NCBI GenBank assembly: GCA_913046215.1
Contig: CAJWRJ010000001.1
Span: 72,897 to 136,896 of the forward strand
Source: an uncultured Legionellales bacterium
Lineage (GTDB): Bacteria; Pseudomonadota; Gammaproteobacteria; Eutrophobiales; Eutrophobiaceae
Length of the DNA stretch: 64,000 nt
Reading direction: 5' to 3'
Shown here: positions 7,127-56,767 of the stretch, piece after piece
Position numbering within the stretch: the first letter of the stretch is position 1
Layout: the number at the start of each line of letters is the position of its first letter
Program-made: the position numbers and the translations under genes
Notes under the pieces: model-generated
The model's database searches: none
What the model was told of the DNA's origin: nothing
The model's input: the letters and a program-made list of their open reading frames with translations, nothing else

Positions 7127-7185
7127 ATAAATTTTACGAGGTAAAAAACATTCATAATCGAATAAAAAGCAATTTACTAATAGCC

Positions 7186-26063: not shown

Positions 26064-26960
26064 CTAATCAAAAGCCCAGCTCGCAAAAGGCTCAATCTCC
26101 CCTCTGTTAACCACTATAAGTTGATATTTATTTGGGTTTAGTGAATGGTCAGCAGTTGTATCAACGGAGAGTTGTTGTAGTAGATAGCCAATTAATGAGC
26201 GTCTTACCTTAATATTAATTAAATTCTTACTATTACTACTATAATCAATAAGTAAACTTTTTTGTTTTTCTTTGTCAAGTTTTGGATGGGGTGCGAGTTC
26301 TAATGATATAATCTCTACCCAGTCATCATCATAGAGTTCATTTGATTCCGCTGCATCATTGAGACATTTTGCATTTGCAAAACGAGATAGCACAAAATCT
26401 CTAAAATCAAATGTTTCTTCAGAGTAGGCGCGTACGTGCCAACGAAAACCAGTGTTAACAAGTGAATGAGGCTCAATAATTCTTTTTGATGGTTGTTCTT
26501 TTTCAGTGAGTGAATGATAACTTACCTTTAACTTTCTTTTGTTACATATCGACCGCGTAATTTGTGAAAGCACATTCTTTTTAGGTAGTCGACTTGGGAG
26601 TGTTAATGAAAAAGCAGGTATACCAAAGATAGAGTCATTCATATTTTGCGAATTTGAAATTATAAAATTAGATTCAAATATTGGCAGGGCTGAGGCCGGA
26701 GATAAGTCGGCGACGACCTCCTCGAATGAATCACTCGGCACAAAGCCAAACACGCTGTGCTTGTAGATAAGATTATCAGGTGCTAGCTCACTGTATAATT
26801 TCAAATCTTTGGTAGCAGCTGCATCAGAGATTGCAAACGCTCTTGCCACATCACTACGCGTGATCAATCCCGCGTAAAAGGCCATCAGTTCAATATACTG
26901 GAGACGTTGCAGAGTTACCCACTTGATTTCATCTATCGCTGTTCTTCGTTTTGTCATCAT
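26064..26960 (-). CDS. HTH + WYL-domain transcriptional regulator (PafBC/DriD/BrxR-like architecture)
   Basis: 298 aa. N-terminal helix-turn-helix (LMAFYAGLITRSDVARAFAISDAAATKDL), a central WYL-type segment (KLKVSYHSLTEKEQPSKRIIEPHSLVNTGFRWHVRAYSEETFDFRDFVLSRF) and a C-terminal extension. Transcribed divergently from recA. Confidence 0.6.
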   Translation of the reverse strand: MMTKRRTAIDEIKWVTLQRLQYIELMAFYAGLITRSDVARAFAISDAAATKDLKLYSELAPDNLIYKHSVFGFVPSDSFEEVVADLSPASALPIFESNFIISNSQNMNDSIFGIPAFSLTLPSRLPKKNVLSQITRSICNKRKLKVSYHSLTEKEQPSKRIIEPHSLVNTGFRWHVRAYSEETFDFRDFVLSRFANAKCLNDAAESNELYDDDWVEIISLELAPHPKLDKEKQKSLLIDYSSNSKNLINIKVRRSLIGYLLQQLSVDTTADHSLNPNKYQLIVVNRGEIEPFASWAFD

Positions 26961-32901: not shown

Positions 32902-33034
32902 AAAAACAGATTCTAAAATCGAGATTCAGCCTCAATTGTCAAGGTTCATTTCAGGACAGCCAATATTTTACACTTAAAAAACTGTCCTAATTATAGGTAT
33001 AATTGACTCATATACTACGAAAGTGCCAATAATA

Positions 33035-34390
33035 ATGAAAAAAAAATATAAAAACTTTCATATTTTTGTCGGGCTGTTACTTGTGTTAAAAGTATCAATC
33101 ACCACAGCTGAAACATTACCTCAGTATGGCAAAGATATGCATCTAGGAGTACAAACTTGCTCAGGATCAACATGTCATGGTGCCGTTCAACCATGGCAGA
33201 ATTCATCTGTGCTTCAGAATGAAGCAATTACTTGGAAAAAATATGATCATCATGCTCGTGCTTTTAAGACATTAGCAAGCGAGCGTTCAAAACGTATTGC
33301 AAAAAATTTGGGAATAGAAAACCCGCAGAAAGATAATGTGTGTTTAAACTGTCATGCAAATAATGTTCCCAAAGAAAAACGTGCTAAAAATTTCATGATA
33401 AGTGATGGTGTTACCTGCGAAGCATGCCATGGAGGTGCAGAAAAATGGCTAGGCATTCATGTTTCCGGAGTGGGTGGACGTGAAGAAAATATTAAAGCTG
33501 GGCAGTACCCAACCGAGGAGCCTTTAGCTAGAGCAAAACTTTGTTTAAGTTGTCATTATGGTACTGAAAATAAATTTCTTACACATAGAATAATGGGTGC
33601 AGGCCATCCAAGGTTAGCTTTTGAACTTGACACATATACTGCGACACAACCAGCACATTACAAAGTTGATGCAGATTATAGACAAAGGAAAAGATGGAGC
33701 AATGGTGTTAGAACATGGGCAATCGGACAGGCAGTTGCTGTCGAAGAAACCTTAAATGCGTTGACAGATAAAAATAGAAATCGCCAAGGTATTTTTCCTG
33801 AACTTGTATTCTTCGATTGCCATGCTTGTCACCACCCTATGTCTAATCTTCGCTGGGAGCGAAGAGATAGTGTAGGTCTTGATCCTGGAATTCCAAAACT
33901 AAATGACGCAAACATTGTAATGTTGCGAGTAATTTCTTCTGTAGTTGATCCAGAACTTGGTAAGCGTATAGAAGAAGAGACTAAACGGTTACATCAAGCA
34001 TCAATGAAAGGCGGTGATGCAACGTTTGAAGCCGCGGATGTTTTGAGATCAACCTTAAAAGGCGTTGTTCAAAAGATTAGTAAACATACTTTTAATCAAA
34101 AAGAAATGGAAAAAATACTTAATGCGCTCTTAGAGTTTGGATTTCATGGTGAATATGTTAATTACATAGCAGCTGAACAGGCTACTTACTCAATTGGTAG
34201 CGTCATCGAGGCTATGAAAGATAGTGGAATGATAAGAGGGAAGGCGATTGAAAAAGTTAAAAAAGCAATGGACATGGCCTACGAAGCGGTTAAATCTGAT
34301 GAAAAGTATCGTCCTTCAGAATTTGTCAAAGCAATTGAAAATATAAAAAAATCCGTAAGTCCGGAATTACAGCTTTCAAAAAAACACTAG
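33035..34390 (+). CDS. secreted pentaheme c-type cytochrome (4 CXXCH + 1 CX4CH) with a non-heme alpha-helical C-terminal domain
   Basis: Signal peptide MKKKYKNFHIFVGLLLVLKVSITTAETL. Heme sites CSGSTCH, CLNCH, CEACH, CLSCH and CHACH fall in the first ~270 aa. The remaining ~180 aa are heme-free and predicted helical. Confidence 0.8.
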   Translation: MKKKYKNFHIFVGLLLVLKVSITTAETLPQYGKDMHLGVQTCSGSTCHGAVQPWQNSSVLQNEAITWKKYDHHARAFKTLASERSKRIAKNLGIENPQKDNVCLNCHANNVPKEKRAKNFMISDGVTCEACHGGAEKWLGIHVSGVGGREENIKAGQYPTEEPLARAKLCLSCHYGTENKFLTHRIMGAGHPRLAFELDTYTATQPAHYKVDADYRQRKRWSNGVRTWAIGQAVAVEETLNALTDKNRNRQGIFPELVFFDCHACHHPMSNLRWERRDSVGLDPGIPKLNDANIVMLRVISSVVDPELGKRIEEETKRLHQASMKGGDATFEAADVLRSTLKGVVQKISKHTFNQKEMEKILNALLEFGFHGEYVNYIAAEQATYSIGSVIEAMKDSGMIRGKAIEKVKKAMDMAYEAVKSDEKYRPSEFVKAIENIKKSVSPELQLSKKH

Positions 34391-34516
34391 GTGATTAGCC
34401 AAAATCTGGACAAAATTACGACCTAAATTATCATCAAGTGTTTTATAGAATAATATTATTAGATAGTGTATTTTTTCAGTATGAGATTAGAAAAATCACC
34501 GAATGTAAGTCAATAT

Positions 34517-36349
34517 ATGGTATTTCCAAAAAAGACACTTTTTTTACTCGTAGGCATTATTTTTTTCAGTGTCTCAAGTGCTAATGAACCTATTATAGAT
34601 CAAGACCTAAAATTACCCGATAATTATCAATCTCAGTGGGAGAAAGTTGCTGGTGATTCTGAACCCGTAATGCCAGGCGGGGGAGACGGATTAGATCCAC
34701 ATCTTAAAATATTACAACAATCGAAATATCCATCAGCTGCACTTTGTGGAAGATGTCACCAGCGTATTTTTACTGAGTGGGCTTCATCAAACCATGCTTA
34801 TGCATCAATTTCGCCAATGTTTCACAAGTTTGAGCAAGCGGTCAATGCATTGACGTCTGGCACGATGGGTACTTTTTGCGTGCGTTGTCATCAACAAGTC
34901 GGTACTCAAGTCGGAGAAACTCGCGAAGCACCTCTTTGGGAACGTTCACAAGTTGCTAGAGAAGGTATCACATGCATTACTTGCCATAGAGTTAATCAAG
35001 CGTTTGGAAAAGTAAATGGCGAGCGTCACATACAGCCAGGGACTATTTACGAACCAGTATATAATACTGGCGATGCGCCAGGTGTTGCAGAGGTGATATC
35101 TGAACGTGATTATTATAAAGTTGCAACGAATCCTGACGAGGAAGGCTTCCCGATACACGGCGGCGCTCAAGTTTTCGAGACAATTGGAGAGTCTGAGTTT
35201 TGTGTTTCATGCCATCAGGTCGCAGTTAATTTAGGAATTAAGTTAGAAGTTGTATGGGAACAGTACCGTGATAGTCCTGCGCATGCGAAGGGCGTGACTT
35301 GTCAAGAGTGTCATATGGGCAAGATTCCGGGAGAAGCAAAAGGCTATGATACTGGACCTGTTGCTATAGTTAATGGACGCGTTGTTGGAGATCCAAATCG
35401 TAAACATTCAAATCATGCATTTTACGGACCCGGTTATCCAATTGCTCACCCTGGTTTATTTCCATTTAATGTGCGTTCATTGAAATGGTCTGTAAAAGAG
35501 TGGCTGACATTTAATTATCGAAAGCCATGGGGTAAGCCTGATTGGGAGGATAAGCTCGAACAAGGATTGGTGGAAAAACCAGAATTTCCTGAAATATGGT
35601 CGACTAGACAGGCACGAGAAGAAGCTAGATACATAATTGGCCAGAACAATAAATTGCTCGAGAATAAAAAGCTAGATCGTTTAGCTGTAATGGAAAATGG
35701 AAGCCGTATTGATGGACCATTTTTTGATAATGGTAAACCAGAAATGGGAAAAGATTTAAAATTTCGTTATCGAATTACAAATGTTGATGAGGGACACAAT
35801 CTTCCATCTGGTTCTTTAGGCGCACAACCAGAAATCTGGCTCAATGTCGTACTCACAGATCCTGATGGCGAACGTGTATTTGAATCAGGATATGTTGACA
35901 AGTACGGAGATATGGTTGATTTACATTCGTTAGAGTTGGCCGAGGGCACAATAGAACACGATGATCAACTTTTTAATCTACAAACAAAATTTTTGACAAC
36001 CAATATTAAAGGTACTGATCGCGAGATGTATCTGCCTGTTAATTTCGATATAGATCAACTCCCATTTTTAAGACCTGCCCCACAACCAACGACTGTCATG
36101 AATCATCCACCTTTCGTGAGAATGGAGGGTCGTTCAATACCACCTTTAGCTTACCGTGATGCTAAATATAAAGTCTCCGGTGATTTAATAAAAAAATCTG
36201 GCACATATAAATTACAAGTAAGAATGCGAAGTCGTGCGGAACCAATTTATTTTATGAAATTTGTTGGTGCAACACTTGATATGGAAAAAAGAATTAATGA
36301 CTGGATGATTGATATTCATCCATACTCAGTCGATTTTGATATCAATTAA
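34517..36349 (+). CDS. secreted pentaheme c-type cytochrome with a ~300-aa non-heme C-terminal domain
   Basis: Likely start MVFPKKTLFLLVGIIFFSVSSANEP (signal peptide). Heme sites CGRCH, CVRCH, CITCH, CVSCH and CQECH. The track ORF begins at 34466. Confidence 0.8.
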   Translation: MVFPKKTLFLLVGIIFFSVSSANEPIIDQDLKLPDNYQSQWEKVAGDSEPVMPGGGDGLDPHLKILQQSKYPSAALCGRCHQRIFTEWASSNHAYASISPMFHKFEQAVNALTSGTMGTFCVRCHQQVGTQVGETREAPLWERSQVAREGITCITCHRVNQAFGKVNGERHIQPGTIYEPVYNTGDAPGVAEVISERDYYKVATNPDEEGFPIHGGAQVFETIGESEFCVSCHQVAVNLGIKLEVVWEQYRDSPAHAKGVTCQECHMGKIPGEAKGYDTGPVAIVNGRVVGDPNRKHSNHAFYGPGYPIAHPGLFPFNVRSLKWSVKEWLTFNYRKPWGKPDWEDKLEQGLVEKPEFPEIWSTRQAREEARYIIGQNNKLLENKKLDRLAVMENGSRIDGPFFDNGKPEMGKDLKFRYRITNVDEGHNLPSGSLGAQPEIWLNVVLTDPDGERVFESGYVDKYGDMVDLHSLELAEGTIEHDDQLFNLQTKFLTTNIKGTDREMYLPVNFDIDQLPFLRPAPQPTTVMNHPPFVRMEGRSIPPLAYRDAKYKVSGDLIKKSGTYKLQVRMRSRAEPIYFMKFVGATLDMEKRINDWMIDIHPYSVDFDIN

Positions 36350-36359
36350 AAAAAAGATC

Positions 36360-38825
36360 ATGCCTCTAAAACATAATAAATTAAATAAGATTTATAGTTT
36401 ATTTTTATATAGTGCACTAGTTTTATTTTCATACCAGCAGCCATTATATGCGGATGTGTTGACTTCAGTTAATGATTGGGCGAAGGCTTGGGCATCACAA
36501 AATGTTGATCAATATTTTGAAAGTTATGCTGAAGATTTTGCGCCCTCTCAAGAACATACTAAAAAAACTTGGAAATCTCAAAGAGAGAGTAGATTGTTGT
36601 CTCCAAGTTTTATCAAGGTGACATTATCTAATATAGAAATCAGCCAGCACTCTGAGGATTTTGCTGATGTGCTTTTTACACAAAACTATAAGTCAGATAG
36701 CTATTCTGATGAAGTGACAAAACAATTGAGAATGCAAAAAATTGATGACAAATGGCTGATTATAAAGGAAAAAACTATAAAAATAAGACAGAAAACAGAA
36801 CTCCAATTAGTGAAAAAAAATGAGGTTTTAGAGGACACCACAACAGTCCAAATCGAACATGATGTTAAAGAGGCCTTGAATAGTTGGTCAAAGGTTTGGT
36901 CATCTCAGGATATTGATGGTTATTTTGCAGCTTACGCTGAAGATTTTTCGCCATCCAACATATCAAACAAAAAAAAATGGAAAAAACAACGTCATAATAG
37001 AGTCATTAGTCCAAGCTATATAAAGGTAACTCTTACTGATGTGAAGATTACACAACACAGTAAAAATAATGTCGACGTAGTATTTAATCAAAATTATGAA
37101 TCTAGTAATCACAGCGATGATGTTAGAAAACTTATTTCCATGCAGAGGGAAAATGAGCGATGGTTGATCACCAAGGAGAGAGTAAAAAAAGTTTTGATTG
37201 ATATTAGTGAAGACCTATCTTCACAAGACAAAACTAATCTTATAGCAGAATTAGATTCTCACAGTGATAGTTCAATAAATTATGCAGATGTTGTTCCTGT
37301 TGAAGATGATTTGAAAGATGAAAGTATTTTACGAAGAAGAGATGTACCCGCCGATACTGTTTTAGAGAAGAGAAGTGGTAGTCCTAAACATAAAAGTCAC
37401 CAAGCGCCACCCGAAATGGATCCTCATGTTCGTCCATCTGAATTTGAGCCAGATCTTTTTGGAAGTGATCCAGTATATCCAGATAATGTTTATGATGTTG
37501 CTGAGCAAATAAAAATTTATGGTGGAAAAACTCCATTTGATGAACCACGTCCAATACTAGAATTTGGTTATCCTCTTTATTCCGAGGGTGCTTTGGGTAG
37601 AACCTATGATGTTATTGGAGAGAAAAACTTGTTAAGACCACAGCTACTTGTATACGGTGATTTTAGAAGTGCTCTTGCTTTTAACGACAATGGCAACAAG
37701 GAGATTGGTCAGATCGCTGCAAGGTTGAATCTTGATGTTGATTTAAAATTAACCGCAACAGAACGTATTCATCTTTTTCTTCGTCCTATTGATAAAAATA
37801 ATAATTTTCTTCGTCACGAGTTTTTTGGCGATGATCATAATGACTTCGATTTTGTGTTAGATGCAAATCTTGAGACTATTTATTTTGAGGGTGATATAGG
37901 GGCCATTCAATCGGGATTAACAAATGAATGGGCAACTTATGATTTGCCCTTTGCTATTGGTTTCATGCCTTTGCTTTTTCAGAATGGAATATGGCTTGAT
38001 GACGCATTTGTAGGTGCTGCATTTGCTATTCCAGCGATGAATTCTCCAAAGTACGATATATCAAATATGGATATTAGCTTTTTCACTGGTTTTGACAAAG
38101 TAACAACTGCAGCATTAAAAAATGGAGCTGGTCAAATAGAGGATAGTAAGGGAAATGTTTTTGGTGTAAATGCATTCGTGGAAACTCGACAAGGATACTT
38201 AGAAGCCGGTTATGGTTTCATTGATGATAAACGTAATGGAAATATATTAAGTGGTTTTGATCATCATAGTTTGACTGCAGCATGGACAAAGAGATATAGA
38301 GGGAAACTTTCAAACTCAATACGTGGTATCTGGACATTTGGACAAACTCCGAATGGAGGCAATACCCAGACTGCTGATGGGTTTGTCATTCTCATAGAGA
38401 ACTCACTTATAACTAGCAAGCCATCAACTTTAATTCCATATGGCAATTTTTACGTTGGTGTGGATAGACCTCAACCACTTGTACGTGGCAATGATGGGCT
38501 TCTTAAAAATACAGGAATAGTCTTTGAAACCGACGGTTTAACAGGATTTCCAAAACTTGATTCCTCTGCTCAAGATGTATTTGGTGGCGCAATTGGTATT
38601 CAATACCTCTTTGATTTATCTAGACAGGCTGTATTTGAAGTTGCAACTGTTCAGCCATTTGGCGGTCAGTCTGCGACGATTGTTGGCGATCAGTACGGAT
38701 TGAGCGCACGATATCAGCATAATTTAAATGATCGTTGGCTTATAAGGACGGACGCAATGATTGGAATTCTTAATAATGCAGAGAATATTTCTGGTATTCG
38801 TCTCGAATTGCGCCGTAAATTCTAA
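36360..38825 (+). CDS. outer-membrane beta-barrel protein with two tandem N-terminal NTF2/SnoaL-like domains (putative porin partner of the cytochromes)
   Basis: Signal peptide MPLKHNKLNKIYSLFLYSALVLFSYQQPLYA. Two ~110-aa repeats (VNDWAKAWASQNVDQYFESYAEDFAPS...WLIIKEK and LNSWSKVWSSQDIDGYFAAYAEDFSPS...WLITKER). The ~540-aa C-terminal region shows alternating amphipathic strands and a terminal ...GIRLELRRKF, the OMP C-terminal Phe signature. Confidence 0.6.
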   Translation: MPLKHNKLNKIYSLFLYSALVLFSYQQPLYADVLTSVNDWAKAWASQNVDQYFESYAEDFAPSQEHTKKTWKSQRESRLLSPSFIKVTLSNIEISQHSEDFADVLFTQNYKSDSYSDEVTKQLRMQKIDDKWLIIKEKTIKIRQKTELQLVKKNEVLEDTTTVQIEHDVKEALNSWSKVWSSQDIDGYFAAYAEDFSPSNISNKKKWKKQRHNRVISPSYIKVTLTDVKITQHSKNNVDVVFNQNYESSNHSDDVRKLISMQRENERWLITKERVKKVLIDISEDLSSQDKTNLIAELDSHSDSSINYADVVPVEDDLKDESILRRRDVPADTVLEKRSGSPKHKSHQAPPEMDPHVRPSEFEPDLFGSDPVYPDNVYDVAEQIKIYGGKTPFDEPRPILEFGYPLYSEGALGRTYDVIGEKNLLRPQLLVYGDFRSALAFNDNGNKEIGQIAARLNLDVDLKLTATERIHLFLRPIDKNNNFLRHEFFGDDHNDFDFVLDANLETIYFEGDIGAIQSGLTNEWATYDLPFAIGFMPLLFQNGIWLDDAFVGAAFAIPAMNSPKYDISNMDISFFTGFDKVTTAALKNGAGQIEDSKGNVFGVNAFVETRQGYLEAGYGFIDDKRNGNILSGFDHHSLTAAWTKRYRGKLSNSIRGIWTFGQTPNGGNTQTADGFVILIENSLITSKPSTLIPYGNFYVGVDRPQPLVRGNDGLLKNTGIVFETDGLTGFPKLDSSAQDVFGGAIGIQYLFDLSRQAVFEVATVQPFGGQSATIVGDQYGLSARYQHNLNDRWLIRTDAMIGILNNAENISGIRLELRRKF

Positions 38826-38834
38826 ATAATTATA

Positions 38835-40532
38835 TTAAATTTTTTCTTTTGGCATCATCAAGTCTTCGCGATGAAAGCCATGACATTCAGTACAGGTGCT
38901 TTTTACTTTTGTTGTCGTTGTTTCTCCACCATGGCATTCCTGACAAGTTGTAATTGACGGGAGCAGTATATCGGTAGCTTTTTCACTTTTTGTTGCATCA
39001 TGACATGTTGTACATTCTCTATCTTTGTGCGGTTTATGATTAAAGAAACTTTTTGGTAGCCACTTTGTTGGTACATGAACAGTTGCTATATCCCATCTAC
39101 CCGTTTTTTTATTTTCTACAATTTGGTGACATTCTCCACATAGTCCACGACCATATCTTCCTTGTACAATTTCTTCGGCTTTTGCTTCAGCCCATTCTAG
39201 AGCCGCCTTCTTTTTTTCTTTAGTATCAGGTTTATCGCCTATTAGTTTACGAAAAGTTGATGTTTCATCATTTAATGTATTTGACTCAATAAAATTGCCT
39301 CGAAGTGCAAACTCGGCATATGTTCCTATAATATATTCTTTTGCTAAAGAAATATTTCCATGCGGCATCTCTCTATTAGGTGCTTGAGGTTCAAATTTTA
39401 AGTCGTGGCAACTGGCGCAGTGTTTTTCAAAACTTACAGGGAGTAAAGCAACACCTCCAGTTTCAGGCTCATGGCAGAATCCACACTGAAGAACCGTTCG
39501 TGTTCCATTTGGATGTCTAACTCCATTTTCTTTTAGATGCTTATTATGTGGAAATTTCAAATTCGATCGATCTATTGGTTTTGGTTTTTTTTGATCAATC
39601 GTCACTCTCTCAAAAGTTAAAGGCTGATGAGTTTTTATGAGTGTAGGACGAAATTGAGGATGTTCGTTAAAGTTTGAGACATTTTTTAATTTAGAATTCT
39701 CAGCAACATCTAGGATTTCACTATGGCAGTTGCTACAAAATCTTTCAGTGGTGATAAGCAAGCCCTGATCGCCATTATGTTCTTTATGACAATCCTGACA
39801 CTGTTGTCCATCTAAAGAGGCGCTTGGAAATATAGACGGGTCCGCATGGTGCCCGGCATCATCATGACAATCAAAACATACTTTATTTCCTACTTGTTGA
39901 AATGCATCTGTATGGCATGTTTCGCAGCGATCGCCAAAATGTGCATGCACACTAGAATGAGGGCCTGACAACCAAATTTTATCAGCGGTTGCTAAAATTC
40001 CATTTTTTTTTGTTTCACTTACTGTTTCATTTTTTTTATATTTTATCGTATATGCGGTAAGTGGCCCCAATATTCCAAGCGTGATAATTCCAATAAATAA
40101 AACCCACGCCCATCCTCTAGTACTGAGTCCAAGCGAATCAAACTGTGTATTTGATCGTTTTTTAAATGCTTCTAATTCATCACCTAGTGGACGCGAGTAC
40201 TCAATAGTTAATACAGCATCATATCCATCTTCATTATCTAAGACCTCGATATCATATGGACCAAGATGAATTTTATCTCCCGTTTTTACGGTTGATTTAG
40301 TAAGGATTTGATCATTAACCTGAAAATCACTATCTCCTTGACCCTCTAAGTATAGTTCTCCCGAACGCTCTGTTATTTCAAGTTGAATTAATAGAATTCT
40401 TGGATCAGTTAAGTGAACCTCGCATTCTGAACCACGTCCAAAGCGAATTGCAGGAGATTCTATATCTTCGTCACGCTGAGCATATCCCCCAGAACGAGTT
40501 TTTTTAAGAAGATGTCTAATAAGTACTTTCAT
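38835..40532 (-). CDS. FHA-domain / single-TM / periplasmic decaheme c-type cytochrome fusion
   Basis: 565 aa. N-terminal FHA-like fold (IRFGRGSECEVHLTDPRILLIQLEITERSGELYLEGQGDSDFQVNDQIL...GDKIHLGPYDIEV), TM helix (WAWVLFIGIITLGILGPLTAY), then ten CXXCH sites: CETCH, CFDCH, CQDCH, CSNCH, CGFCH, CASCH, CGECH, CTTCH, CQECH, CTECH. Confidence 0.75.
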   Translation of the reverse strand: MKVLIRHLLKKTRSGGYAQRDEDIESPAIRFGRGSECEVHLTDPRILLIQLEITERSGELYLEGQGDSDFQVNDQILTKSTVKTGDKIHLGPYDIEVLDNEDGYDAVLTIEYSRPLGDELEAFKKRSNTQFDSLGLSTRGWAWVLFIGIITLGILGPLTAYTIKYKKNETVSETKKNGILATADKIWLSGPHSSVHAHFGDRCETCHTDAFQQVGNKVCFDCHDDAGHHADPSIFPSASLDGQQCQDCHKEHNGDQGLLITTERFCSNCHSEILDVAENSKLKNVSNFNEHPQFRPTLIKTHQPLTFERVTIDQKKPKPIDRSNLKFPHNKHLKENGVRHPNGTRTVLQCGFCHEPETGGVALLPVSFEKHCASCHDLKFEPQAPNREMPHGNISLAKEYIIGTYAEFALRGNFIESNTLNDETSTFRKLIGDKPDTKEKKKAALEWAEAKAEEIVQGRYGRGLCGECHQIVENKKTGRWDIATVHVPTKWLPKSFFNHKPHKDRECTTCHDATKSEKATDILLPSITTCQECHGGETTTTKVKSTCTECHGFHREDLMMPKEKI

Positions 40533-40535
40533 TTC

Positions 40536-41378
40536 TTACCAATAAAAAAATACAGCTAGTATGTGAGAGAAAAGTGCAGCCAATAAACCTATCGATAGTG
40601 GAATATGAAAAAATAACCACACTCTTAGAATTACTTTTATTTGAATATCGCGTCTCGCTCGTCTGAGTAATTTTGTTTTTTTTGCAAGTAAAGCGATTAC
40701 CTTTGATATGTTTTGATCGCGAAGACCCATATCAGCAAATTTTTCTTCAATTAAATTCCTAGCATTTAGGGTTGGACAGTCAATATTTTTTGGTGATAAT
40801 TTTTCTATTATATTTCCACCTATACTAGTCTCAGTGGCTGCTTTAAGTAGAGCCGTATTTATTTCTTCAGGCAGTTGCTGACCAGCTTTAAGAATATCTT
40901 GATCTAGTTCTGAAATTTGCCCCATCATTTCATCTAGAGACAGTCCAGCTCGATTTTTTGTCATTAGCTTTGGATAATATGCATAAATAAATACCCCAAC
41001 AACACCACTTAACACAGTTAACAGCATAAGGATGTAAGCAATGGAATGGATATTCCATCCAATCTGAAAACCACTATGTAGAGTTGCGGTAACTACAAGA
41101 GCGAGTCCAAGATAAATATGAGCAGACAACCAAACCTTTAATCCTGTTGCACTAACAGCATATTGCCTTTTTCTAACTCCAAACCAAGTTAACCACAAAA
41201 CTAAAACAGCTGAAATTATCCCCAATGTGTATCCAAGCCATGATCCGCCATTTGGTTCACCCAGGGGGTTATGCCATATATAAAGAACGATTGAGATAAA
41301 AGCCAATGCGACGGCATACCAAAGAAACTTGAGACCTTTATAGATAAAAAAAGAATCATGGACATTACGTGAACTCAT
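40536..41378 (-). CDS. polytopic inner-membrane protein with conserved intramembrane His (putative b-heme / quinol-interacting subunit)
   Basis: Start MSSRNVHD, placed by a TGATATG stop/start junction with the upstream gene; 280 aa. Five TM helices with His in helices 3-5 (LSAHIYLGL, WNIHSIAY, FFHIPLSIGLLAALFSHIL). A ~100-aa soluble loop lies between TM4 and TM5. The track ORF is extended to 41579. Confidence 0.55.
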   Translation of the reverse strand: MSSRNVHDSFFIYKGLKFLWYAVALAFISIVLYIWHNPLGEPNGGSWLGYTLGIISAVLVLWLTWFGVRKRQYAVSATGLKVWLSAHIYLGLALVVTATLHSGFQIGWNIHSIAYILMLLTVLSGVVGVFIYAYYPKLMTKNRAGLSLDEMMGQISELDQDILKAGQQLPEEINTALLKAATETSIGGNIIEKLSPKNIDCPTLNARNLIEEKFADMGLRDQNISKVIALLAKKTKLLRRARRDIQIKVILRVWLFFHIPLSIGLLAALFSHILAVFFYW

Positions 41379-41379
41379 A

Positions 41380-43788
41380 TCACTCGCTCCCGTCTCTAAT
41401 AAAGTCCATGAATTCGTCTGGTTTGACACGTATCGCCGCCCCAGTTGGGCAAGCACGCACACAAGCAGCACCACCTTTAATATCCTTACACATATCGCAC
41501 TTAACTGCTGTTTTGCGAGCATCCTCCGGTGCTCTTTCTCGGTAACCATAGTCTTCGCCTGGTCCAGGACCTTTTCCAAAAAGAAGCCAAGAAAACAAAT
41601 TTGGTTTTTCTGGTGGTTCAGGCGCCATTTGAATTACCCCATATGGGCAATTTTTTTGGCAGTTACCACAACCAATACAGTCATTTGTAATGTAAACTTC
41701 ACCGTCAGGGTTTCTTTTAATAGCATCGGGAGGACAGTCCGTCATACAGTGCGGATGTTCGCAATGTCGGCAACTTGTTGGAACATGCACGTTTGCAAAT
41801 GTTGGTCCTGCCTCACGATTTAATCTCGAAATACCCCTGTGTGTCTCGGCACAGGCTTTTTCACAATTATCACATCCAACACATAACGATTCGTTTATTA
41901 AAAGCACATCAGTTGCTTCACCTATACCTTCTCCCATTAAAAATTCTACAATACTTCCAGCCTCAGGTTGCTCTATCATTTTTTCTGTTGAAACAATACG
42001 TTCACCATATTTCTCTTCGATTTCTTTTTGAAGAGAAGGATTTTCATCAACTAATTTGCGGAAGATTTCACCATCTATCTTAATTGTTTCACAATCAACC
42101 GCGGCTTTAATTGTTGCTGTTCGATTTAAATCTGACATTAATGCCATTTCCCCAACATAATTACCTGCAGCGACGTAAGCAAGGGTTACCTCCTTACCAC
42201 CTATTCGTTTCGATACCATCACTGAGCCTTTACTTATGAGATAAAGCGCATCACCCTCATCACCCTCATTAAATATAACTTTACCTTTACGAAAGGTTTC
42301 TATTGAAGCTGAGTCTGCCAATTTTTGTATTGCATTAATGTCGAGGGCGCTTGCGATATAAGTTTGAATTTGCCTTACGATAGCCTCTTTATCCATAGAA
42401 TTTCGTAAAGAACGGACATCCTCTCTTAATTTAAGCATCGTACGACGAGGCGTTTCAATTAATATCGTATCATCTGCATTAGATAAAATTGTTGCCGAAC
42501 GTCTACGACCCGATATTAATCCCACTTCTCCAAAAAATGCACCTTGCTCCAAGACAACAAACTTAGATGGATCATCCTCGCTAGTTTGTATTTTGACTGA
42601 GCCCCTGAATATTGTGTAGACACTATTCGTATAATCTCCCCGTTCAAAAATTACTGTTCCATTAGGCGGCGCAGTTACGGTTGATTCAACTAACATTTCT
42701 CTTTCCATTAATGGGTTTAGTTCTTCAAATATAGGAAGTCTTGCCCTCACTTCTTTTAAAAAAGAATCATTATCAAAATCCTTTATATCTTTTAAAGTTT
42801 TAGTAATTATTGGTTCATCAGCTGGATCTAATTCCGTGTTACCGTTGATATATTCAATGACTTCATAACCCTGATTTATTGCATGTTTAATTAACGGATA
42901 TCCACCTAAGGAGCCAACTATATATAGGCCTTTAACATTTGATTCGTAGGTTTTGCTTACTTCTGGCAACGCGCTGCGTGCATCAGATGGAAAAGTAACT
43001 CCACAGGCTTCAACAAACTTTCGTGGCGGTGCTGCACCAAGTCTAGCAATCACTCTGTCACACTCTATTGTTACATCGCCATCAGGCGTATCAAAAGTTA
43101 ATGTTCCTTCCGAACATTCCTTTGAACTACTATTGTATAGGGGAGTAATACGTCCTCTATCAATTTCAGCTAAAATAGCCGCTTCATTTGCTTCTTTTGC
43201 ACGTGAAAATTCATTACCACGATTAGCTATATAAACTGTGTTATGCGTACACAAACCAAGTGCATTTTCTATTGCAGCATCACCCGCACCGATAACAATG
43301 ATAGTTTCATGCTCATATTCATCTGGGTCATCTAATTGATATTGAATATGCGTGACATCATCTATTCCAGGTATTCGTAAAGTATTCAGATTACCTTGAA
43401 GACCTATTGCAAGAACGATTGATTCTACTTTAATAATATCTTTATTTTTTAGTGTAAGCTCAAACTTTCCTTTTGTTCCTGAAACAGATTTAACTTCAGA
43501 ATTGTATAGAATATTAACTTGGTGATTTTTTAATGCTAGATTCCATCTATCGAGAACATCTTCTCTGCTTCCCATTTTAAAATCGATATCTGAACGCAAG
43601 GGAAGCACGTCCGGAGTTGCCATAACATGCTTACCTTTTTGAAACTTGTAAATTGTGTCCGATACATGATCTGCTTTTTCAATTAATACATGTCGTAAAC
43701 CTAATACAGATGCATGCGCTGCTGCACTAAGACCAGCTGGTCCAGAACCTATTATTGCAACTTGAAAAATTGATTCTTTACTCGCCAT
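41380..43788 (-). CDS. FAD-dependent pyridine-nucleotide oxidoreductase fused to two cyclic-nucleotide-binding domains and a poly-[4Fe-4S] ferredoxin domain
   Basis: 802 aa. Rossmann fold VAIIGSGPAGLSAAAHA plus a second dinucleotide site IIVIGAGDAAIENA. Two cNMP-binding segments (FFGEVGLISGRRRSATI; YVGEMALMSDLNRTATIKA). C-terminal Cys clusters CVGCDNCEKAC, CRHCEHPHCMTDCP, CIGCGNCQKNCP and CDMCKDIKGGAACVRACP. Confidence 0.8.
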   Translation of the reverse strand: MASKESIFQVAIIGSGPAGLSAAAHASVLGLRHVLIEKADHVSDTIYKFQKGKHVMATPDVLPLRSDIDFKMGSREDVLDRWNLALKNHQVNILYNSEVKSVSGTKGKFELTLKNKDIIKVESIVLAIGLQGNLNTLRIPGIDDVTHIQYQLDDPDEYEHETIIVIGAGDAAIENALGLCTHNTVYIANRGNEFSRAKEANEAAILAEIDRGRITPLYNSSSKECSEGTLTFDTPDGDVTIECDRVIARLGAAPPRKFVEACGVTFPSDARSALPEVSKTYESNVKGLYIVGSLGGYPLIKHAINQGYEVIEYINGNTELDPADEPIITKTLKDIKDFDNDSFLKEVRARLPIFEELNPLMEREMLVESTVTAPPNGTVIFERGDYTNSVYTIFRGSVKIQTSEDDPSKFVVLEQGAFFGEVGLISGRRRSATILSNADDTILIETPRRTMLKLREDVRSLRNSMDKEAIVRQIQTYIASALDINAIQKLADSASIETFRKGKVIFNEGDEGDALYLISKGSVMVSKRIGGKEVTLAYVAAGNYVGEMALMSDLNRTATIKAAVDCETIKIDGEIFRKLVDENPSLQKEIEEKYGERIVSTEKMIEQPEAGSIVEFLMGEGIGEATDVLLINESLCVGCDNCEKACAETHRGISRLNREAGPTFANVHVPTSCRHCEHPHCMTDCPPDAIKRNPDGEVYITNDCIGCGNCQKNCPYGVIQMAPEPPEKPNLFSWLLFGKGPGPGEDYGYRERAPEDARKTAVKCDMCKDIKGGAACVRACPTGAAIRVKPDEFMDFIRDGSE

Positions 43789-44090: not shown

Positions 44091-44167
44091 GCGCCCGTAG
44101 CTCAGTTGGATAGAGTACCTGGCTACGAACTAGGGGGTCGGAGGTTCGAATCCTTCCGGGCGCGCCA
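44091..44167 (+). tRNA. tRNA-Arg (anticodon ACG)
   Basis: GCGCCCGTAGCTCAGTTGGATAGAGTACCTGGCTACGAACTAGGGGGTCGGAGGTTCGAATCCTTCCGGGCGCGCCA. 77 nt canonical cloverleaf, close to E. coli argV. Confidence 0.92.
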
Positions 44168-44197: not shown

Positions 44198-44926
44198 TTA
44201 CTGTCGCCTTTTAAGCCACATCCAAATACCGGTAGCGGAAATAACAAGCATTAGAATTGCAACCAGATCCATAAAGTAGGTACCCCATTTTCCTACAACA
44301 CGGCCGCTATGCATATCAAGCAATACTCTTTCAATTGTCAGACCTTTGCCGCGGTACTCGTTAAAAATAGCAATTCTTAGTTTCTCGGATATATTATTTG
44401 ATGTGTCCGACCAATTTGCAGAAAGCAGATCATGTTCATTCCAGTTCAAAATATCCAAATTGACGCGATAATAACCATGTGCCGATTTAATTATTACATT
44501 ATCCTTATCATCAACACCAATTGCTTTCATCCCTGCGGGAACACCCTCGGCACCTGATAAAGATTCTAAAAGTTTACCGTCTTCAGTAAGCACCATTAAT
44601 TTTCCATCATAACCAACGACAAATGTGTTATTTATATAAACAACACCAATTAGGTTTTCTACATTAGTAATAATTTCTATGTCATTGAAATAAACACGTT
44701 GACCAAGTTGTGTTATCCAGTTGTTATTGTAGGAAGGGTATGCGATAGGTTCGGAGTTTGGGCTAATTTGATAAAGATCAAGCAACCATTCCATCTTTAT
44801 AAATGTTGTATTTAACTTGAACTTTTCACTGTGGTTTAATGCGATACCGCTAATAGCAAGAAAAATAACAAATATTACGATGAATATTCCTATCTTTTTG
44901 TGCCACCTTTGTATAAAAAGAAACAT
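44198..44926 (-). CDS. PepSY-associated TM-helix family membrane protein (two TM helices flanking a periplasmic domain)
   Basis: 242 aa. N-terminal QRWHKKIGIFIVIFVIFLAISGIALNH and C-terminal LDMHSGRVVGKWGTYFMDLVAILMLVISATGIWMW are typical PepSY_TM helix signatures with conserved His. Confidence 0.6.
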   Translation of the reverse strand: MFLFIQRWHKKIGIFIVIFVIFLAISGIALNHSEKFKLNTTFIKMEWLLDLYQISPNSEPIAYPSYNNNWITQLGQRVYFNDIEIITNVENLIGVVYINNTFVVGYDGKLMVLTEDGKLLESLSGAEGVPAGMKAIGVDDKDNVIIKSAHGYYRVNLDILNWNEHDLLSANWSDTSNNISEKLRIAIFNEYRGKGLTIERVLLDMHSGRVVGKWGTYFMDLVAILMLVISATGIWMWLKRRQ

Positions 44927-44956
44927 ACACCTATTCTAGGATGCAATTATTTATTT

Positions 44957-45484
44957 TCAATTTTTATTATCGATATATTGATCTAGAAATAGAGCTAGAC
45001 GTGCTAATTTTATCAAAGCATCAACTGACAATGTTGCTCCACTAATACCATCAATTTTTCTATCTAATTTTGTATCAGCCTTAAGAGAGGCATCTGCAAA
45101 TTGTTCTGTAAAAAAAGGATATCTTACTTCCCATCCTCTTGATTCTCTAAAAACTAGTACTTTCACATCTAGAATCTTTCCTTTTGAAGTAACATATCCA
45201 GTCGTAATTGGCTTGTCTCTGCCAATTCTCTCTAAAATCCAGGCTTTTTTAGACCCATCATCCCAATATCGAAGTCGTAATGGCTTGAATTCATCTCCCA
45301 GTATTTTTTTTATTTCTTTCTTTAGCTCTTTTTTAAGCCATAGTTTTTTTGGATTTGGAGGGTTATTGTTAAACACGTCCGATAAAAATTTTTCAGGTTC
45401 TAAGTAAGTTCCCTTTGCATAAGAGTGTAAACTCCAACTCTGAGTTAGTAGAAATAAAAAGATATATAAAGTCAGTTTTGTCAT
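44957..45484 (-). CDS. secreted FMN-binding domain protein (predicted ApbE flavinylation target)
   Basis: 175 aa with a signal peptide. The C-terminal KIDGISGATLSVDAL matches the D-x-[ST]-G-A-T-x-[ST] motif of NqrC/RnfG-type FMN_bind domains, whose Thr (here T151) is covalently flavinylated. Confidence 0.65.
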   Translation of the reverse strand: MTKLTLYIFLFLLTQSWSLHSYAKGTYLEPEKFLSDVFNNNPPNPKKLWLKKELKKEIKKILGDEFKPLRLRYWDDGSKKAWILERIGRDKPITTGYVTSKGKILDVKVLVFRESRGWEVRYPFFTEQFADASLKADTKLDRKIDGISGATLSVDALIKLARLALFLDQYIDNKN

Positions 45485-45589
45485 ATTTAGTTATAAGCCT
45501 ACAAAAAAAATAGGGCACTTACAAAAGTGCCCTAAATATATCACCACGAGGATATTACCGTTGGTACGATAATTCTTAAAATTTATTAT

Positions 45590-46756
45590 TTAGAACGAAT
45601 ACCCTACACCAAGATAGAAGTTATCTGTGGTTGTATTATCATCAACATCTTTAACCGATTCAAAGGTACCTTTGAAAACTACCTTTGGATGTGGCCAGAT
45701 ATTAAAACCTGTTGAGGTACGTTCTTCTTCGTTTCTAGAGCCTGTAAAACCTCTGTCTATGTCTTCGTATCTGATGTAGACACCTACGTCGGTATTACTA
45801 TTACCCACAGTCCAACGATAGGCTGGCTCAACATACCAACCTTCTGAGTCTTTACCATCAGCTGATAAGTTCTTATTCATATCCCATCCCGCATAAAGAG
45901 CGCGGAAACCTAAACCCGAGCTATGTTTATAATCGACATGAGTTGTAAATAAGTGAGCATCATTTCCTGATACTAGTTCACCACCGATGTTACTTTGGAA
46001 TTGGTATGAAGCAGATAATTCAAGACCTGGAACACCGGTATAACGGAGTCGACCAGTTGCTGCCGGATATTCTGCGTTTGCTTCTGCTACCTTTTGTCTA
46101 CCAGATCGTATGTTGCTACTCGTTTCTAACCCTGAGTGAAGTACGATGTCATAGTTAACACCTGGTGCAACTTCCCCATTGAAACCAAAACCTGCTTCCC
46201 ACCAAGTTGAAGGAATGATTCTTTTTTCTACTTCATTTCGCTCAACTCCATAGAATGTATTAGGTTCATGTGTAACATTCAACATACCAACAGGTAGAAT
46301 ATCAAGACCGGCACGGAAATGATGATTTTCACTAAGGTCAATTTCAATCCATGCTTGTTCTAATTCAACCTCACCTTCTTTACCCTCTCCAGCTAATGAA
46401 TGCTCTAATTCCCATTCTGAGAAGAAGTGGATGTTATCGGTGTAGTCATGACCTATGTATAGGACATAACGGTGGAAGTCGACTTGATCTGTTCCATCAC
46501 CAAATTTGTAATGAAGTTCACCATAGCCGCCCATCTGAGTTTTATCAGCCCAATTACCAGTTGCACCACCAGCACCAGATTCTACAGCTTCTGCGGTAGC
46601 ATCAAGTTGCTCCTGGAGCTCTTCAATAACTTTTTGCTGTTCTTGTATAGTTTGCCACATTTCTTCTGCTGTCGGTGCTGCTTTAGCGGCAGAGACAGTA
46701 AAAAACATGAATAGAATCATGTAGATAACTCTATTAATGTGATTATTCGTATTCAT
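45590..46756 (-). CDS. outer-membrane beta-barrel porin-like protein
   Basis: 388 aa. Signal peptide (an alternative start is MILFMFFTVSAAKA at 46720), an N-terminal coiled-coil (WQTIQEQQKVIEELQEQLDA), alternating amphipathic strands, and a C-terminal ...NFYLGVGYSF. Confidence 0.6.
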   Translation of the reverse strand: MNTNNHINRVIYMILFMFFTVSAAKAAPTAEEMWQTIQEQQKVIEELQEQLDATAEAVESGAGGATGNWADKTQMGGYGELHYKFGDGTDQVDFHRYVLYIGHDYTDNIHFFSEWELEHSLAGEGKEGEVELEQAWIEIDLSENHHFRAGLDILPVGMLNVTHEPNTFYGVERNEVEKRIIPSTWWEAGFGFNGEVAPGVNYDIVLHSGLETSSNIRSGRQKVAEANAEYPAATGRLRYTGVPGLELSASYQFQSNIGGELVSGNDAHLFTTHVDYKHSSGLGFRALYAGWDMNKNLSADGKDSEGWYVEPAYRWTVGNSNTDVGVYIRYEDIDRGFTGSRNEEERTSTGFNIWPHPKVVFKGTFESVKDVDDNTTTDNFYLGVGYSF

Positions 46757-46819
46757 AAATATCCCTCTCTATTTACTAAAAAACTAGTTTTTTACATGTA
46801 ATTGAATAAGAATAATAAC

Positions 46820-46860
46820 CTAAATGATAATCATTATCAATACAAATGATAATTATTATC
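46820..46860. promoter_or_regulatory. two tandem Fur-box-like sites
   Basis: GATAATCATTATC at 46826-46838 is an exact match to positions 7-19 of the 19-bp Fur consensus GATAATGATAATCATTATC. GATAATTATTATC at 46848-46860 has one mismatch. Both lie 70-100 bp upstream of the start of the minus-strand porin operon. Confidence 0.6.
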
Positions 46861-46987: not shown

Positions 46988-47194
46988 ATGAGTAGCGGTA
47001 AAGTTAAGTGGTTTAACGAATCGAAAGGTTTTGGTTTTATTGAGCCGGATGAGGGTGGAGATGATATCTTCGTTCATTTTTCGTCAATTAAAGCCGAAGG
47101 TTTTAAAACATTAAATGAAGGGCAGGCTGTAACGTACAATGCAGAGCAAGGACCAAAGGGTCTGCATGCAGTTGAAGTCGAAGTGACCTCTTAA
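46988..47194 (+). CDS. cspA: cold-shock protein (CspA family)
   Basis: 68 aa, [34 protein letters not shown], with RNP1/RNP2 motifs. Confidence 0.95.
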
Positions 47195-47591: not shown

Positions 47592-47990
47592 ATGCATTTA
47601 TGTAAAAAGGTATTTTTTATATTATCGAGTCTAATATTATTCAACCCATTACAAGTGTCTGCTGATGATCATGAAGCAATGCTTACTGCGGGTGAATTAC
47701 TGTCAGGGTGTGAGGAAAATTCCTCACCTGGTGCACCCAACCAGTATTGTATGCGATACCTTTTTGGGTTGATTCAAACTGTACTTACGCTCCAGCAGGC
47801 AGATCAAAGCCCACCGATTTTTTGCATAGATCCACAAGTTACGCCTATACAAGAGGCTACCGACAATATGATTGCACATCTGCGAAGTCAGTCCTCGCGT
47901 TCAAATGAGGATGCACAGAAAATAGTTTTAGAGGGGCTCAATAAAAATTATCCTTGTTCAAATCAATCGAAAAAACCAACCTATCACTAG
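47592..47990 (+). CDS. secreted Cys-containing hypothetical protein
   Basis: 132 aa. Signal peptide (ILFNPLQVSA/DD) and four Cys in the mature region. No recognisable motif. Confidence 0.4.
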   Translation: MHLCKKVFFILSSLILFNPLQVSADDHEAMLTAGELLSGCEENSSPGAPNQYCMRYLFGLIQTVLTLQQADQSPPIFCIDPQVTPIQEATDNMIAHLRSQSSRSNEDAQKIVLEGLNKNYPCSNQSKKPTYH

Positions 47991-48083
47991 AGAATTTAAA
48001 TCAAGTTACATGGTTGGCTCCATTTGTATGAACTAAGCGCTGATATTTATGTCTCTTAATTATAATTTCAACAAGGGTTCATC

Positions 48084-48893
48084 ATGAAAAATATAGTTAA
48101 GTTGTCGCCAATGATTTTTCTGGCCTTCTTCATATCTGTCTCTGCCGCTGATTTTGATGAAGTATATAGCGCATATGAAAAACAAAAATATGATATAGCT
48201 CTAGAGGGTTTTCTTGAGCTTGCAAATGAAAATCATATGGAATCTCAATATTACCTTGGCACTATGTATCGTGAAGGAGAGGGCGTTGATCAGGACTATT
48301 CAAAGTCGCTTGAGTGGTATCTCAAGGCAGCTAATCTTGGAAGCAAAGGCGCACAGCACAATGTAGCATTGTTTTATCACAATGGTATATCAGTCGATCA
48401 GAATATTGCCAAAGCTCTTGATTGGTACTATAAATCAGCGAACCAGGATTACATCCCATCGCAAATAAATATTGCCAAAATTTTTTATAGCGGTCAGGGA
48501 GTAAGTGAGAATATTCCTGAAGCGATAAAGTGGTGGAATAAAGCAGCTGAGCTTGGAAGTAAAGGTGCACAACATAATCTCGGGCTAATGTATTTTCTCG
48601 GGCAGGGCGTAGAGAAAGATTTATCAAAAGCTAGAGAATGGTACTTACTTGCAGCCAAACAAGGCTCGAAAGAAGCTCAGAATAGTATGGGTTTTATGTA
48701 TTTCGAAGGTAAAGGAGTTAAAAAAGATTTGATTGAAGCTTATGCGTGGTTTCAGTTGGCTGCAGTTACGACAGACTTTCAACAAGCTAAACTGAATTCT
48801 AGTATTGTTGAGGCGAATCTAAATACAGAGGAGTTGCAAGAAGCAAAGGAAAGAGCGCAGAAATATATTTCACTTTATGCAGTTGGTGATTAA
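48084..48893 (+). CDS. secreted Sel1-repeat (TPR-like) protein
   Basis: 269 aa with a signal peptide and at least six repeats of A-x-x-Y-x-x-G-x-G-V-x-x-D-x-x-[KE]-A-x-x-W-[YF]-x-x-A-A-x-x-G. Confidence 0.85.
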   Translation: MKNIVKLSPMIFLAFFISVSAADFDEVYSAYEKQKYDIALEGFLELANENHMESQYYLGTMYREGEGVDQDYSKSLEWYLKAANLGSKGAQHNVALFYHNGISVDQNIAKALDWYYKSANQDYIPSQINIAKIFYSGQGVSENIPEAIKWWNKAAELGSKGAQHNLGLMYFLGQGVEKDLSKAREWYLLAAKQGSKEAQNSMGFMYFEGKGVKKDLIEAYAWFQLAAVTTDFQQAKLNSSIVEANLNTEELQEAKERAQKYISLYAVGD

Positions 48894-55765: not shown

Positions 55766-56767
55766 CTACTTTGAAATAAATGGCTCAAAATATTCATTGT
55801 ATTCCTCATAAAAATTTTCATCATTTTTTATGATTAAATATACTCCTATTTTTAGTTCATTTGCCAATTCTATTGTTTTTGCTGGACCTAAGACCATGAA
55901 TGCTGTCGCCAGAGCATCTGCGTTCATTGCTGTTTTATCCAGTACGGTAACTGATGCCAATTTATGTTTTATTGGTTTACCGGTATTCGGGTTAATTGTA
56001 TGCGAGTAGCGCACTCCATTTTTTTCAAAGTAGTTCCTATAATCACCAGATGTAGCCATGGCTATATCTTTAAGTCCAATAATTTTTACAAGATTATTAT
56101 TAGGATTTTCAATTCCTATTTGCCATACTTCATTATCTTCATTTGTCCCTTTAGCAATCAACTCCCCACCAATTTCAACTAAATAATTTTCTAAGTTATA
56201 GCTATTTAAATATAGTGCAATTTTATCTACTGCAAAACCTTTTGCTATTCCTGAGAGGTCTACATATAGATCAGGGTGTAATTTTTTTATACTTGTAGTT
56301 TCCTTGTTTAGATAGATTTTCTTATATCCAATGTTTTTCTTTATTAATTCAATCTCTTCATTAGATGGTATTTTATTTTCTGATTTATTAGGACCAAAAC
56401 CCCATAGATTTACCAAAGGACCAACCGTTATATCAAACGCTCCATTTGTAGTTTTACTTATAGTATTTGCATGAGAGATTACTTTGAATAAGTCATCAGA
56501 TATGAGATTCGAATCTAAGCTATTTGAAAAATTGATCACGGATAATTCTGAATCTACTATATATGTCGACATTTTCTGATTAATTTCTAATAGTATTTTT
56601 TCGATGTCAGCACGTATTTTTTCTTGATTAACTACGGCATCAGCCGTTTTAATTTTTATACTATAGGTGGTTCCCATAGTTAATCCATTGATTAACACAA
56701 TTTTATAATTATTATTTTGACAGGCACCGGTGCCTATCATTAGGAATATTATTATCAAAATTCGCAT
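55766..56767 (-). CDS. apbE: FAD:protein FMN transferase (ApbE family) lipoprotein
   Basis: 333 aa. Lipobox (IGTGAC), MGTTYSIKI, FDITVGPL...WGFGP and DLSGIAKGFAVDKIA are ApbE hallmarks. Confidence 0.88.
   Translation of the reverse strand: MRILIIIFLMIGTGACQNNNYKIVLINGLTMGTTYSIKIKTADAVVNQEKIRADIEKILLEINQKMSTYIVDSELSVINFSNSLDSNLISDDLFKVISHANTISKTTNGAFDITVGPLVNLWGFGPNKSENKIPSNEEIELIKKNIGYKKIYLNKETTSIKKLHPDLYVDLSGIAKGFAVDKIALYLNSYNLENYLVEIGGELIAKGTNEDNEVWQIGIENPNNNLVKIIGLKDIAMATSGDYRNYFEKNGVRYSHTINPNTGKPIKHKLASVTVLDKTAMNADALATAFMVLGPAKTIELANELKIGVYLIIKNDENFYEEYNEYFEPFISK

Follow-up and report, generated by a model that had tools for sequence, protein, structure and literature searches.

The 64,000-nucleotide (nt) stretch of DNA analysed here, called the window below, comes from an uncultured Legionellales bacterium (assembly GCA_913046215.1, contig CAJWRJ010000001.1, positions 72,897 to 136,896 of the forward strand), and the present study concerns a trio of consecutive genes on its minus strand. 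In genomic order of transcription, these encode an outer-membrane porin of 388 amino acids (aa; 46756..45590), a predicted periplasmic FMN_bind protein of 175 aa (45484..44957) and a half-size PepSY_TM inner-membrane protein of 242 aa (44926..44198). The porin has a 16-strand model, a signal peptide ending in SAAKA/AP and a C-terminal Phe; the FMN_bind protein belongs to PF04205 and has a putative signal peptide ending in HSYA/KG; and the PepSY_TM protein matches both PF03929 and PF16357. All three open reading frames lie where a preliminary description of this DNA had placed them. That description also had the operon starting 31 bp after a tRNA-Arg gene. It turns out that the tRNA-Arg(ACG) gene (44091-44167) is on the plus strand and convergent with the trio, which is transcribed toward it and stops with its 3' end 31 bp away, so that the operon ends there. 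This tRNA was the sole match in an Rfam scan of the region. In the assembly collection, 271 blocks contain the 175-aa FMN_bind protein, among them marine samples of TARA Oceans and the Joint Genome Institute (JGI).

Scanning GTDB with one genome for each species, we found relatives of the flavoprotein in at least 520 species; the counts of loci given below refer to the best 80 related loci (L001-L080) unless another denominator is stated. The porin gene lies upstream of the FMN_bind gene in 75 of 77 evaluable loci, all but L054 and L064, and the PepSY_TM gene downstream in 78 of 79, all but L048, with no variation in order or strand. Because the same order recurs in such numbers, the arrangement of the trio is far beyond chance, and the co-conservation that the preliminary description had put forward as a check on its proposal is borne out. 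The trio is also kept together in remoter relatives, at 33-41% identity, whereas no further neighbour is common to more than about a third of the loci. The median gap between the FMN_bind and PepSY_TM genes is -4 nt (30 nt in the window), which indicates that these two genes are translationally coupled; the median gap between the porin and FMN_bind genes is 76 nt. Most of the carriers belong to the Gammaproteobacteria, among them Thiotrichaceae, Woeseiaceae, Thiohalobacterales, Chromatiales and Nevskiales, and Methylophilaceae also occur.

The 242-aa protein matches PF03929 at 47.9 bits (cut-off 28.8), with the transmembrane (TM) parts alone aligned (profile positions 176-295), and PF16357 at 41.4 bits. 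Its AlphaFold2 model, with a predicted local distance difference test (pLDDT) value of 89.6, consists of a long helix (residues 2-31), an all-beta domain (61-165), two short helices and a second long helix (213-241). TM1 corresponds to residues 2-31 and is marked by His9 and the pair Asn31-His32, and TM2 (213-241) is preceded by the motif D204-x-H206-S-G-R. Eight residues are invariant in the family, namely His9, Asn31, His32, Glu199, Asp204, His206, Gly208 and Arg209. When the beta domain (61-165) was searched with Foldseek, the PDB returned only propeller-blade-like matches, with E values of about 1e-3. The half-size family is large, comprising 1096 clusters at 50% identity with E<=1e-30, and among the best 150 of these 1096 clusters the matches are full-length and single, almost all in proteins of 213-290 aa, with three at 308-364 aa.

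The sole relevant sequence match in the PDB was FoxB of Pseudomonas aeruginosa (7ABW, E 2e-4), covering TM1 (LLHRYVG...LLAFH) and the IHGGRI/HxGR motif with the last TM helix. FoxB is a four-helix bundle with two bis-His b haems at the two edges of the membrane, capped by two PepSY domains (10.1101/2021.01.28.428567), and its relatives FpvG, FsrB and HiuB are inner-membrane ferric-siderophore reductases. The relation to FoxB asserted in the preliminary description stands in part. The two proteins share PF03929, and the predicted haem-ligand His residues of the window protein align with FoxB at both ends of TM1 and in the HxGR motif that precedes the last TM helix. However, FoxB is a 382-aa chain with four TM helices and two PepSY domains, encoded beside a TonB-dependent transporter gene, whereas the window protein has two TM helices, a beta-rich, propeller-blade-like periplasmic domain in place of the PepSY domains, a flavoprotein partner and a porin neighbour. 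In a 2026 survey of PepSY_TM proteins, every protein compared has at least four TM segments (PMC13038864). In its membrane part one chain is thus half a FoxB, and since four haem ligands would need two chains, we infer that the protein forms a homodimeric cytochrome b. A precedent for half-size cytochromes is FezC, in which the haem sites are formed by homodimerisation (PMC11334425). FezC and the other DUF4405 cytochromes resemble the predicted form of the 242-aa protein in being small membrane proteins, with bis-His haem bound by homodimerisation, that are tied to flavinylation or iron handling (PMC11334425), but they belong to another family with another number of helices.

The 175-aa protein matches PF04205 at 32.8 bits (cut-off 22), with residues 97-165 on profile positions 12-76 of 77. 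The sequence DGISGATLS, described earlier as a flavinylation motif at the end of the FMN_bind domain, occupies residues 145-153 (codons at 45026..45052, minus strand), and the alignment confirmed that it lies inside the PF04205 match. It contains the [S/T]GA[S/T] motif that has been published as the target of ApbE (PMC8238504, PMC11334425), with Thr151 encoded at 45034..45032. A search with the protein found 3297 homologues. In a set of 79 homologues that were compared, I144, D145, I147, G149, A150, T151, S153 and V154 are conserved at 95% or more, as is an upstream FRESRGWE block. A local alignment to Escherichia coli RsxG is collinear, placing RESRGW on HETPGLG and IDGISGAT on DQFTGAT, so that Thr151 corresponds to the Thr of FTGATIT; an unfiltered hmmsearch agrees on this placement of SGAT, at a weak score of 1.1 bits. 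Thus the protein shares with NqrC, RnfG and RsxG the PF04205 domain and two collinear motifs (ETPGLG-like and D-x-x-[S/T]-G-A-T). Those proteins, however, are membrane-anchored subunits of a six-subunit pump, whereas the window protein is predicted to be soluble and to bear a signal peptide, which was recognized by eye from an N-terminal hydrophobic segment followed by a conserved small-x-Ala/Lys-Gly site and reads as cleavable. We infer from these motifs that the 175-aa protein would be a soluble periplasmic carrier of flavin mononucleotide (FMN), covalently bound on Thr151.

The 388-aa porin itself has no direct Pfam or NCBIfam match, and PF07396 (Porin_O_P) did not match it at E<1, but this family is matched by 20 of 26 porin homologues (best 8e-14) and is also carried by many database homologues. 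The AlphaFold2 model (pLDDT 70) contains 16 strands, and Foldseek matched it to OmpK36, OmpU and OprP (2O4V) with E values of about 1e-12 to 1e-10 and template-modelling scores of about 0.6 (0.59 for OprP). The window porin and OprO/OprP (PF07396, 2O4V) are both 16-strand barrels and appear distantly related. However, OprP has an arginine ladder, whereas the mature window porin is net acidic (59 D+E against 26 K+R) and His-rich (13 His). Ten residues on the polar face of its strands are invariant (E80, H82, D93, H95, H103, E114, E116, E118, E138 and D140), and strand parity, used as a heuristic, predicts that this face lines the lumen. These features suggest a cation or metal-binding channel. 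Residues ~28-60 form a conserved periplasmic N-terminal coiled coil that OprO and OprP do not share; P28, M33, W34, I37, Q38, Q40, I44 and L47 are invariant in it, and AlphaFold2 confidence is low there. The coiled coil could be a trimerisation stalk or a site for docking a partner.

Two tandem Fur-box-like sites (46820..46860, minus strand) are located 64-104 nt 5' of the porin start codon. Site 1, GATAATAATTATCATTTGT (46860..46842), matches GATAATGATAATCATTATC at 14 of 19 positions, and site 2, GATAATGATTATCATTTAG (46838..46820), matches it at 15 of 19. They overlap a sigma-70-like promoter, TTGATA-17 nt-TATTAT (46812..46840, minus strand), which has ten of the 12 consensus bases. Upstream of the porin gene, 41 of 66 related loci have a box that matches at 13 or more of the 19 positions, compared with 5 of 66 shuffled sequences and 9 of 72 control sequences from the downstream region, and such boxes are also present where the upstream regions of related loci are GC-rich. 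Since the two sites overlap a promoter-like -35/-10 pair, the cassette may be placed under repression by iron through Fur.

A terminator-like hairpin, TAGGGCACTT-ttgt-AAGTGCCCTA, followed by a T-run (45501..45534, minus strand; z = -2.5), separates the porin gene from the FMN_bind gene. Of 53 related loci, 34 have a hairpin and T-run in this gap, whereas the reverse complement gives such a structure in 8 of the 53. In the window the hairpin ends only ~20 nt before the FMN_bind ATG, and because so little sequence remains between the two it is probably an internal attenuator, which would keep the output of porin well above that of the redox proteins.

Taken together, we think it rather probable that the trio is a self-contained, Fur-repressed, envelope-spanning iron-acquisition cassette that reduces Fe(III) in the periplasm for uptake. 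In iron-poor conditions Fur would come off the two operator sites, the operon would be transcribed, and the hairpin after the first gene would yield the porin in excess over the two translationally coupled redox proteins. The acidic, His-rich, 16-strand porin would let small iron species into the periplasm. Two copies of the 242-aa protein would build a four-helix cytochrome with two b-type haems, liganded by His9 of each subunit at the cytoplasmic edge of the membrane and by His206 (possibly His32) at the periplasmic edge. This homodimer would move electrons from a donor over the inner membrane and pass them to the soluble FMN_bind protein, whose FMN would be attached covalently to Thr151 by the ApbE of the genome. 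The flavoprotein, or a complex of it with the membrane protein, would then turn Fe(III) into Fe(II), and transporters encoded elsewhere would import the Fe(II). The preliminary description had proposed an iron-regulated module for extracytosolic ferric reduction, and this proposal fits the co-conservation, the coupling, the Fur-like boxes, Thr151, the FoxB-aligned His residues and the iron-related neighbours described below; the regulation and the reduction themselves are, as in that description, deduced.

Several observations weigh against this interpretation. The homology to FoxB is confined to ~70 residues, the window PepSY_TM protein has two TM helices rather than four, and the PepSY domain itself (PF03413) has no match in the 242-aa protein. 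A search of PDB sequences with the FMN_bind family profile retrieved neither NqrC nor RnfG, and hhalign of that profile against E. coli RsxG picked another segment. The promoter-like match is not distinctive, such sites being no commoner in the region than in shuffled sequences, and the selectivity assigned to the porin is derived entirely from its composition and strand parity. The cassette has no linked ferrous-iron transporter, and an importer of the Fbp/Afu type, found in eight related loci, usually takes Fe(III), which is awkward beside a reductive step. Finally, for the whole trio family, flavinylation, haem binding and ferric reduction are read from sequence.

The neighbours of the trio in related loci bear on its role. 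A bacterioferritin or ferritin gene adjoins it in ~20 loci, about a quarter (TIGR00754, 250 bits; for example L005, 7218-7745), and in L094 such a gene (6953-7480) is accompanied by a suf Fe-S assembly operon nearby. In eight loci (L004, 9766-13528; L005, L006, L007, L009, L034, L050 and L061) the genes of an ATP-binding cassette (ABC) importer lie directly 3' of the PepSY_TM gene on the same strand, encoding an SBP_bac_6 binding protein, a 567-aa fused double permease and a TOBE_2 ATPase. These genes are absent from the window. By family the importer is of the Fbp/Afu type, and its iron specificity is putative, no NCBIfam cut-off having been passed. No TonB-dependent receptor cluster was present among the annotated neighbour groups of the related loci. 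The recurrence of bacterioferritin and the Fbp/Afu-type importer in a subset of loci supports a role in iron handling.

The same importer raises the question of the direction of electron flow. In a ferroxidase-type route, Fe(II) would enter through a cation-selective porin and be oxidised by the flavoprotein and cytochrome b, the electrons would pass to the quinone pool, and the resulting Fe(III) would be handed to the Fbp/Afu-type importer. Such a route would resemble the oxidase-coupled systems EfeUOB, FtrABCD and Fet3-Ftr1. An Fe(III)-type importer encoded immediately after the trio in the same orientation, as in eight loci, would be well placed for it, and the acidic, His-rich porin suits a cation path. 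Many carriers, moreover, are recorded as Thiotrichaceae, Thiohalobacterales and Chromatiales, which include sulfur oxidisers of low-oxygen habitats that hold Fe(II). However, the importer accompanies the trio in only about one locus in ten, the window organism is marine (TARA Oceans) and has no linked Fbp genes, and flavins oxidise Fe(II) poorly at neutral pH. The authors of PMC8238504 allow reversed electron flow in principle, but the characterised PepSY_TM relatives, FoxB, FpvG, FsrB, HiuB and VciB, are all reductases (PMC13038864). On balance we regard oxidation as improbable, and periplasmic reduction of Fe(III) as the better reading of the trio.

If reduction is accepted, the metal could in principle be another one, for instance copper reduced from Cu(II) to Cu(I), as proposed for CrpH of Bordetella pertussis. 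CrpH extends the PepSY_TM proteins beyond iron, yet it has at least four TM segments and falls in a different PepSY_TM cluster (PMC13038864). A porin lined with His and Glu would bind several divalent metals, but the conserved operator sites match Fur and no copper regulator, and the recurring neighbour is bacterioferritin, with suf genes in one locus. We therefore give a metal other than iron very little probability, and iron remains the substrate that we favour for the cassette.

The enzyme expected to attach the flavin is encoded elsewhere in the window. The apbE gene (55766..56767, minus strand; PF02424, 305 bits), for a flavin adenine dinucleotide (FAD):protein FMN transferase, lies 9.0 kb from the porin start, between a DUF484 gene and the genes DUF3301-yajQ-PHP. 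It had been described as a standalone gene without linkage to nqr or rnf, and we likewise saw no nqr or rnf genes in the annotated parts of the window, which are most of it, annotated via identical metagenome contigs. It had also been taken to belong with the trio. Here the related loci speak otherwise: none of the 80 has apbE less than 10 kb from the trio, which excludes it as a cassette component; the 10-kb limit falls just short of the spacing in the window, and close relatives may share that spacing. ApbE is thus best seen as a trans-acting housekeeping enzyme and candidate flavinylator outside the cassette.

On the far side of the tRNA gene, the window contains a three-gene FAD/4Fe-4S/multihaem block (38835-43788, minus strand). 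Its first protein (802 aa) combines a pyridine-nucleotide disulfide oxidoreductase with two cyclic-nucleotide (cNMP)-binding domains and 4Fe-4S dicluster domains; the second is a polytopic membrane protein, and the third (565 aa) has an N-terminal FHA domain and multiple CXXCH haem motifs. Within the block, a 347-aa open reading frame (40536-41579, minus strand) has a TTG start and a 200-nt overlap with the upstream 802-aa gene; identical contigs call it at 280 aa, and its true start is probably internal. Convergent with the block (33023-38825, plus strand) are genes for two multihaem c-type cytochromes, which are Cytochrome_C554-like with faint MtrC/MtrF-domain matches, followed by a Cds6_C/DUF4440 protein of ~821-838 aa.

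The preliminary description had suggested that the trio interfaces with this cytochrome block. We reject a functional link, as the block stands beside the trio in only 1 of 80 loci (L003, the closest relative), and a convergent tRNA gene lies between them. The abundance of multihaem cytochromes next door had nevertheless offered some ground for an iron-sparing explanation, in which the FMN_bind and PepSY_TM proteins would be a general periplasmic electron-transfer branch, induced when iron is limiting, that replaces iron-rich carriers such as c-type cytochromes, as flavodoxin replaces ferredoxin, without acting on iron, and the porin would be co-regulated separately. A functional redundancy of flavinylation and cytochromes has been described in PMC8238504, and control by Fur is compatible with the idea. 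With the block adjoining the trio in a single locus, however, that ground is narrow; the membrane partner would itself need haem iron, the near-obligate, dedicated porin (75 of 77 loci) would be left unexplained, and the recurring bacterioferritin and ABC importer neighbours suggest that iron is handled. We consider the iron-sparing explanation unlikely, and return to the trio as a cassette for iron acquisition.

Three further features of the window were recorded. A divergent cold-shock-protein gene (46988-47194) lies on the upstream side of the cassette, and adjoining it (47592-48893, plus strand) are genes for a Rap1a-like (PF18602) small secreted protein and then for a 269-aa secreted protein resembling Sel1-type repeats. 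At 26064-26960 (minus strand), a BrxR/WYL-type regulator with WHD_BrxR, WYL and BrxR_CTD domains adjoins recA; such regulators often border defence islands.

The core idea of the preliminary description had been anticipated in print, since Meheust et al. (2021, eLife; PMC8238504) published 'PepSY-like systems', defined as gene clusters associated with flavinylation that include a PF03929 or PF16357 protein, and proposed to serve iron reduction and assimilation. In the window a PF03929/PF16357 gene adjoins a gene with an FMN-binding domain, and the trio thus falls within the operational definition given there. The same article proposes transmembrane electron transfer to a flavinylated periplasmic protein and reports Fur control for other members. 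However, the systems described there carry DUF2271 (2833 of 3220), DUF4198 and ApbE, and sometimes VIT1, a TonB receptor or a fused nicotinamide adenine dinucleotide (NAD)-binding domain, whereas the window cluster has no DUF2271, DUF4198 or ApbE, uses the FMN_bind protein as its flavin carrier and has a dedicated porin as the third gene. The word 'porin' is absent from the main text of PMC8238504, and no paper in the literature searched brings together PepSY, FMN-binding, porin and iron.

Two other systems were compared by description only. VciB of Vibrio cholerae is likewise an inner-membrane protein of a PepSY_TM-related family, reported to mediate iron reduction (via PMC8238504 and PMC13038864), but in the former source it is reported to have no association with flavinylation components. 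The Fur-regulated genes so1188-1190 of Shewanella oneidensis were considered as the same cassette and rejected by their annotation, SO1188 being a PepSY-TM protein and SO1190 the periplasmic component of an ABC-type Co2+ transporter; these annotations therefore suggest a cluster of the DUF2271/DUF4198 type. Thus the porin-linked, half-size form with an FMN_bind protein is undescribed in the papers searched, while the general concept has been in print since 2021 (PMC8238504). The details that are new here are the half-size haem protein, the dedicated acidic porin and the internal attenuator, each at the strength given above.

A wider proposal, which we put forward tentatively and hold to be somewhat doubtful as a whole, is that Proteobacteria of marine and sediment habitats take up non-siderophore iron reductively through this cassette, by a widespread, TonB-independent and porin-based route. 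The parts would act as a trans-envelope assembly, in which a cation-selective, metal-binding porin docks the covalently flavinylated reductase through its conserved periplasmic coiled coil, and the reductase receives electrons from a homodimeric cytochrome b that would be a new, half-size class of PepSY_TM protein. In the dimer, the two beta-rich half-domains might come together as a propeller-like chamber that handles iron.

How bacteria without siderophore systems acquire iron from seawater and sediment is poorly understood. Periplasmic reduction has been shown for few PepSY_TM proteins. The cassette offers a compact and widespread system for tests, present in at least 520 species-level genomes, with ~1,100 clusters of the membrane protein at 50% identity. 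If the model fails, a strict linkage of three genes under Fur control will still have to be explained. If it is true, the PepSY_TM family would gain a periplasmic redox partner and a minimal, dimeric form of the FoxB fold, and the porin would become a candidate iron-selective porin.

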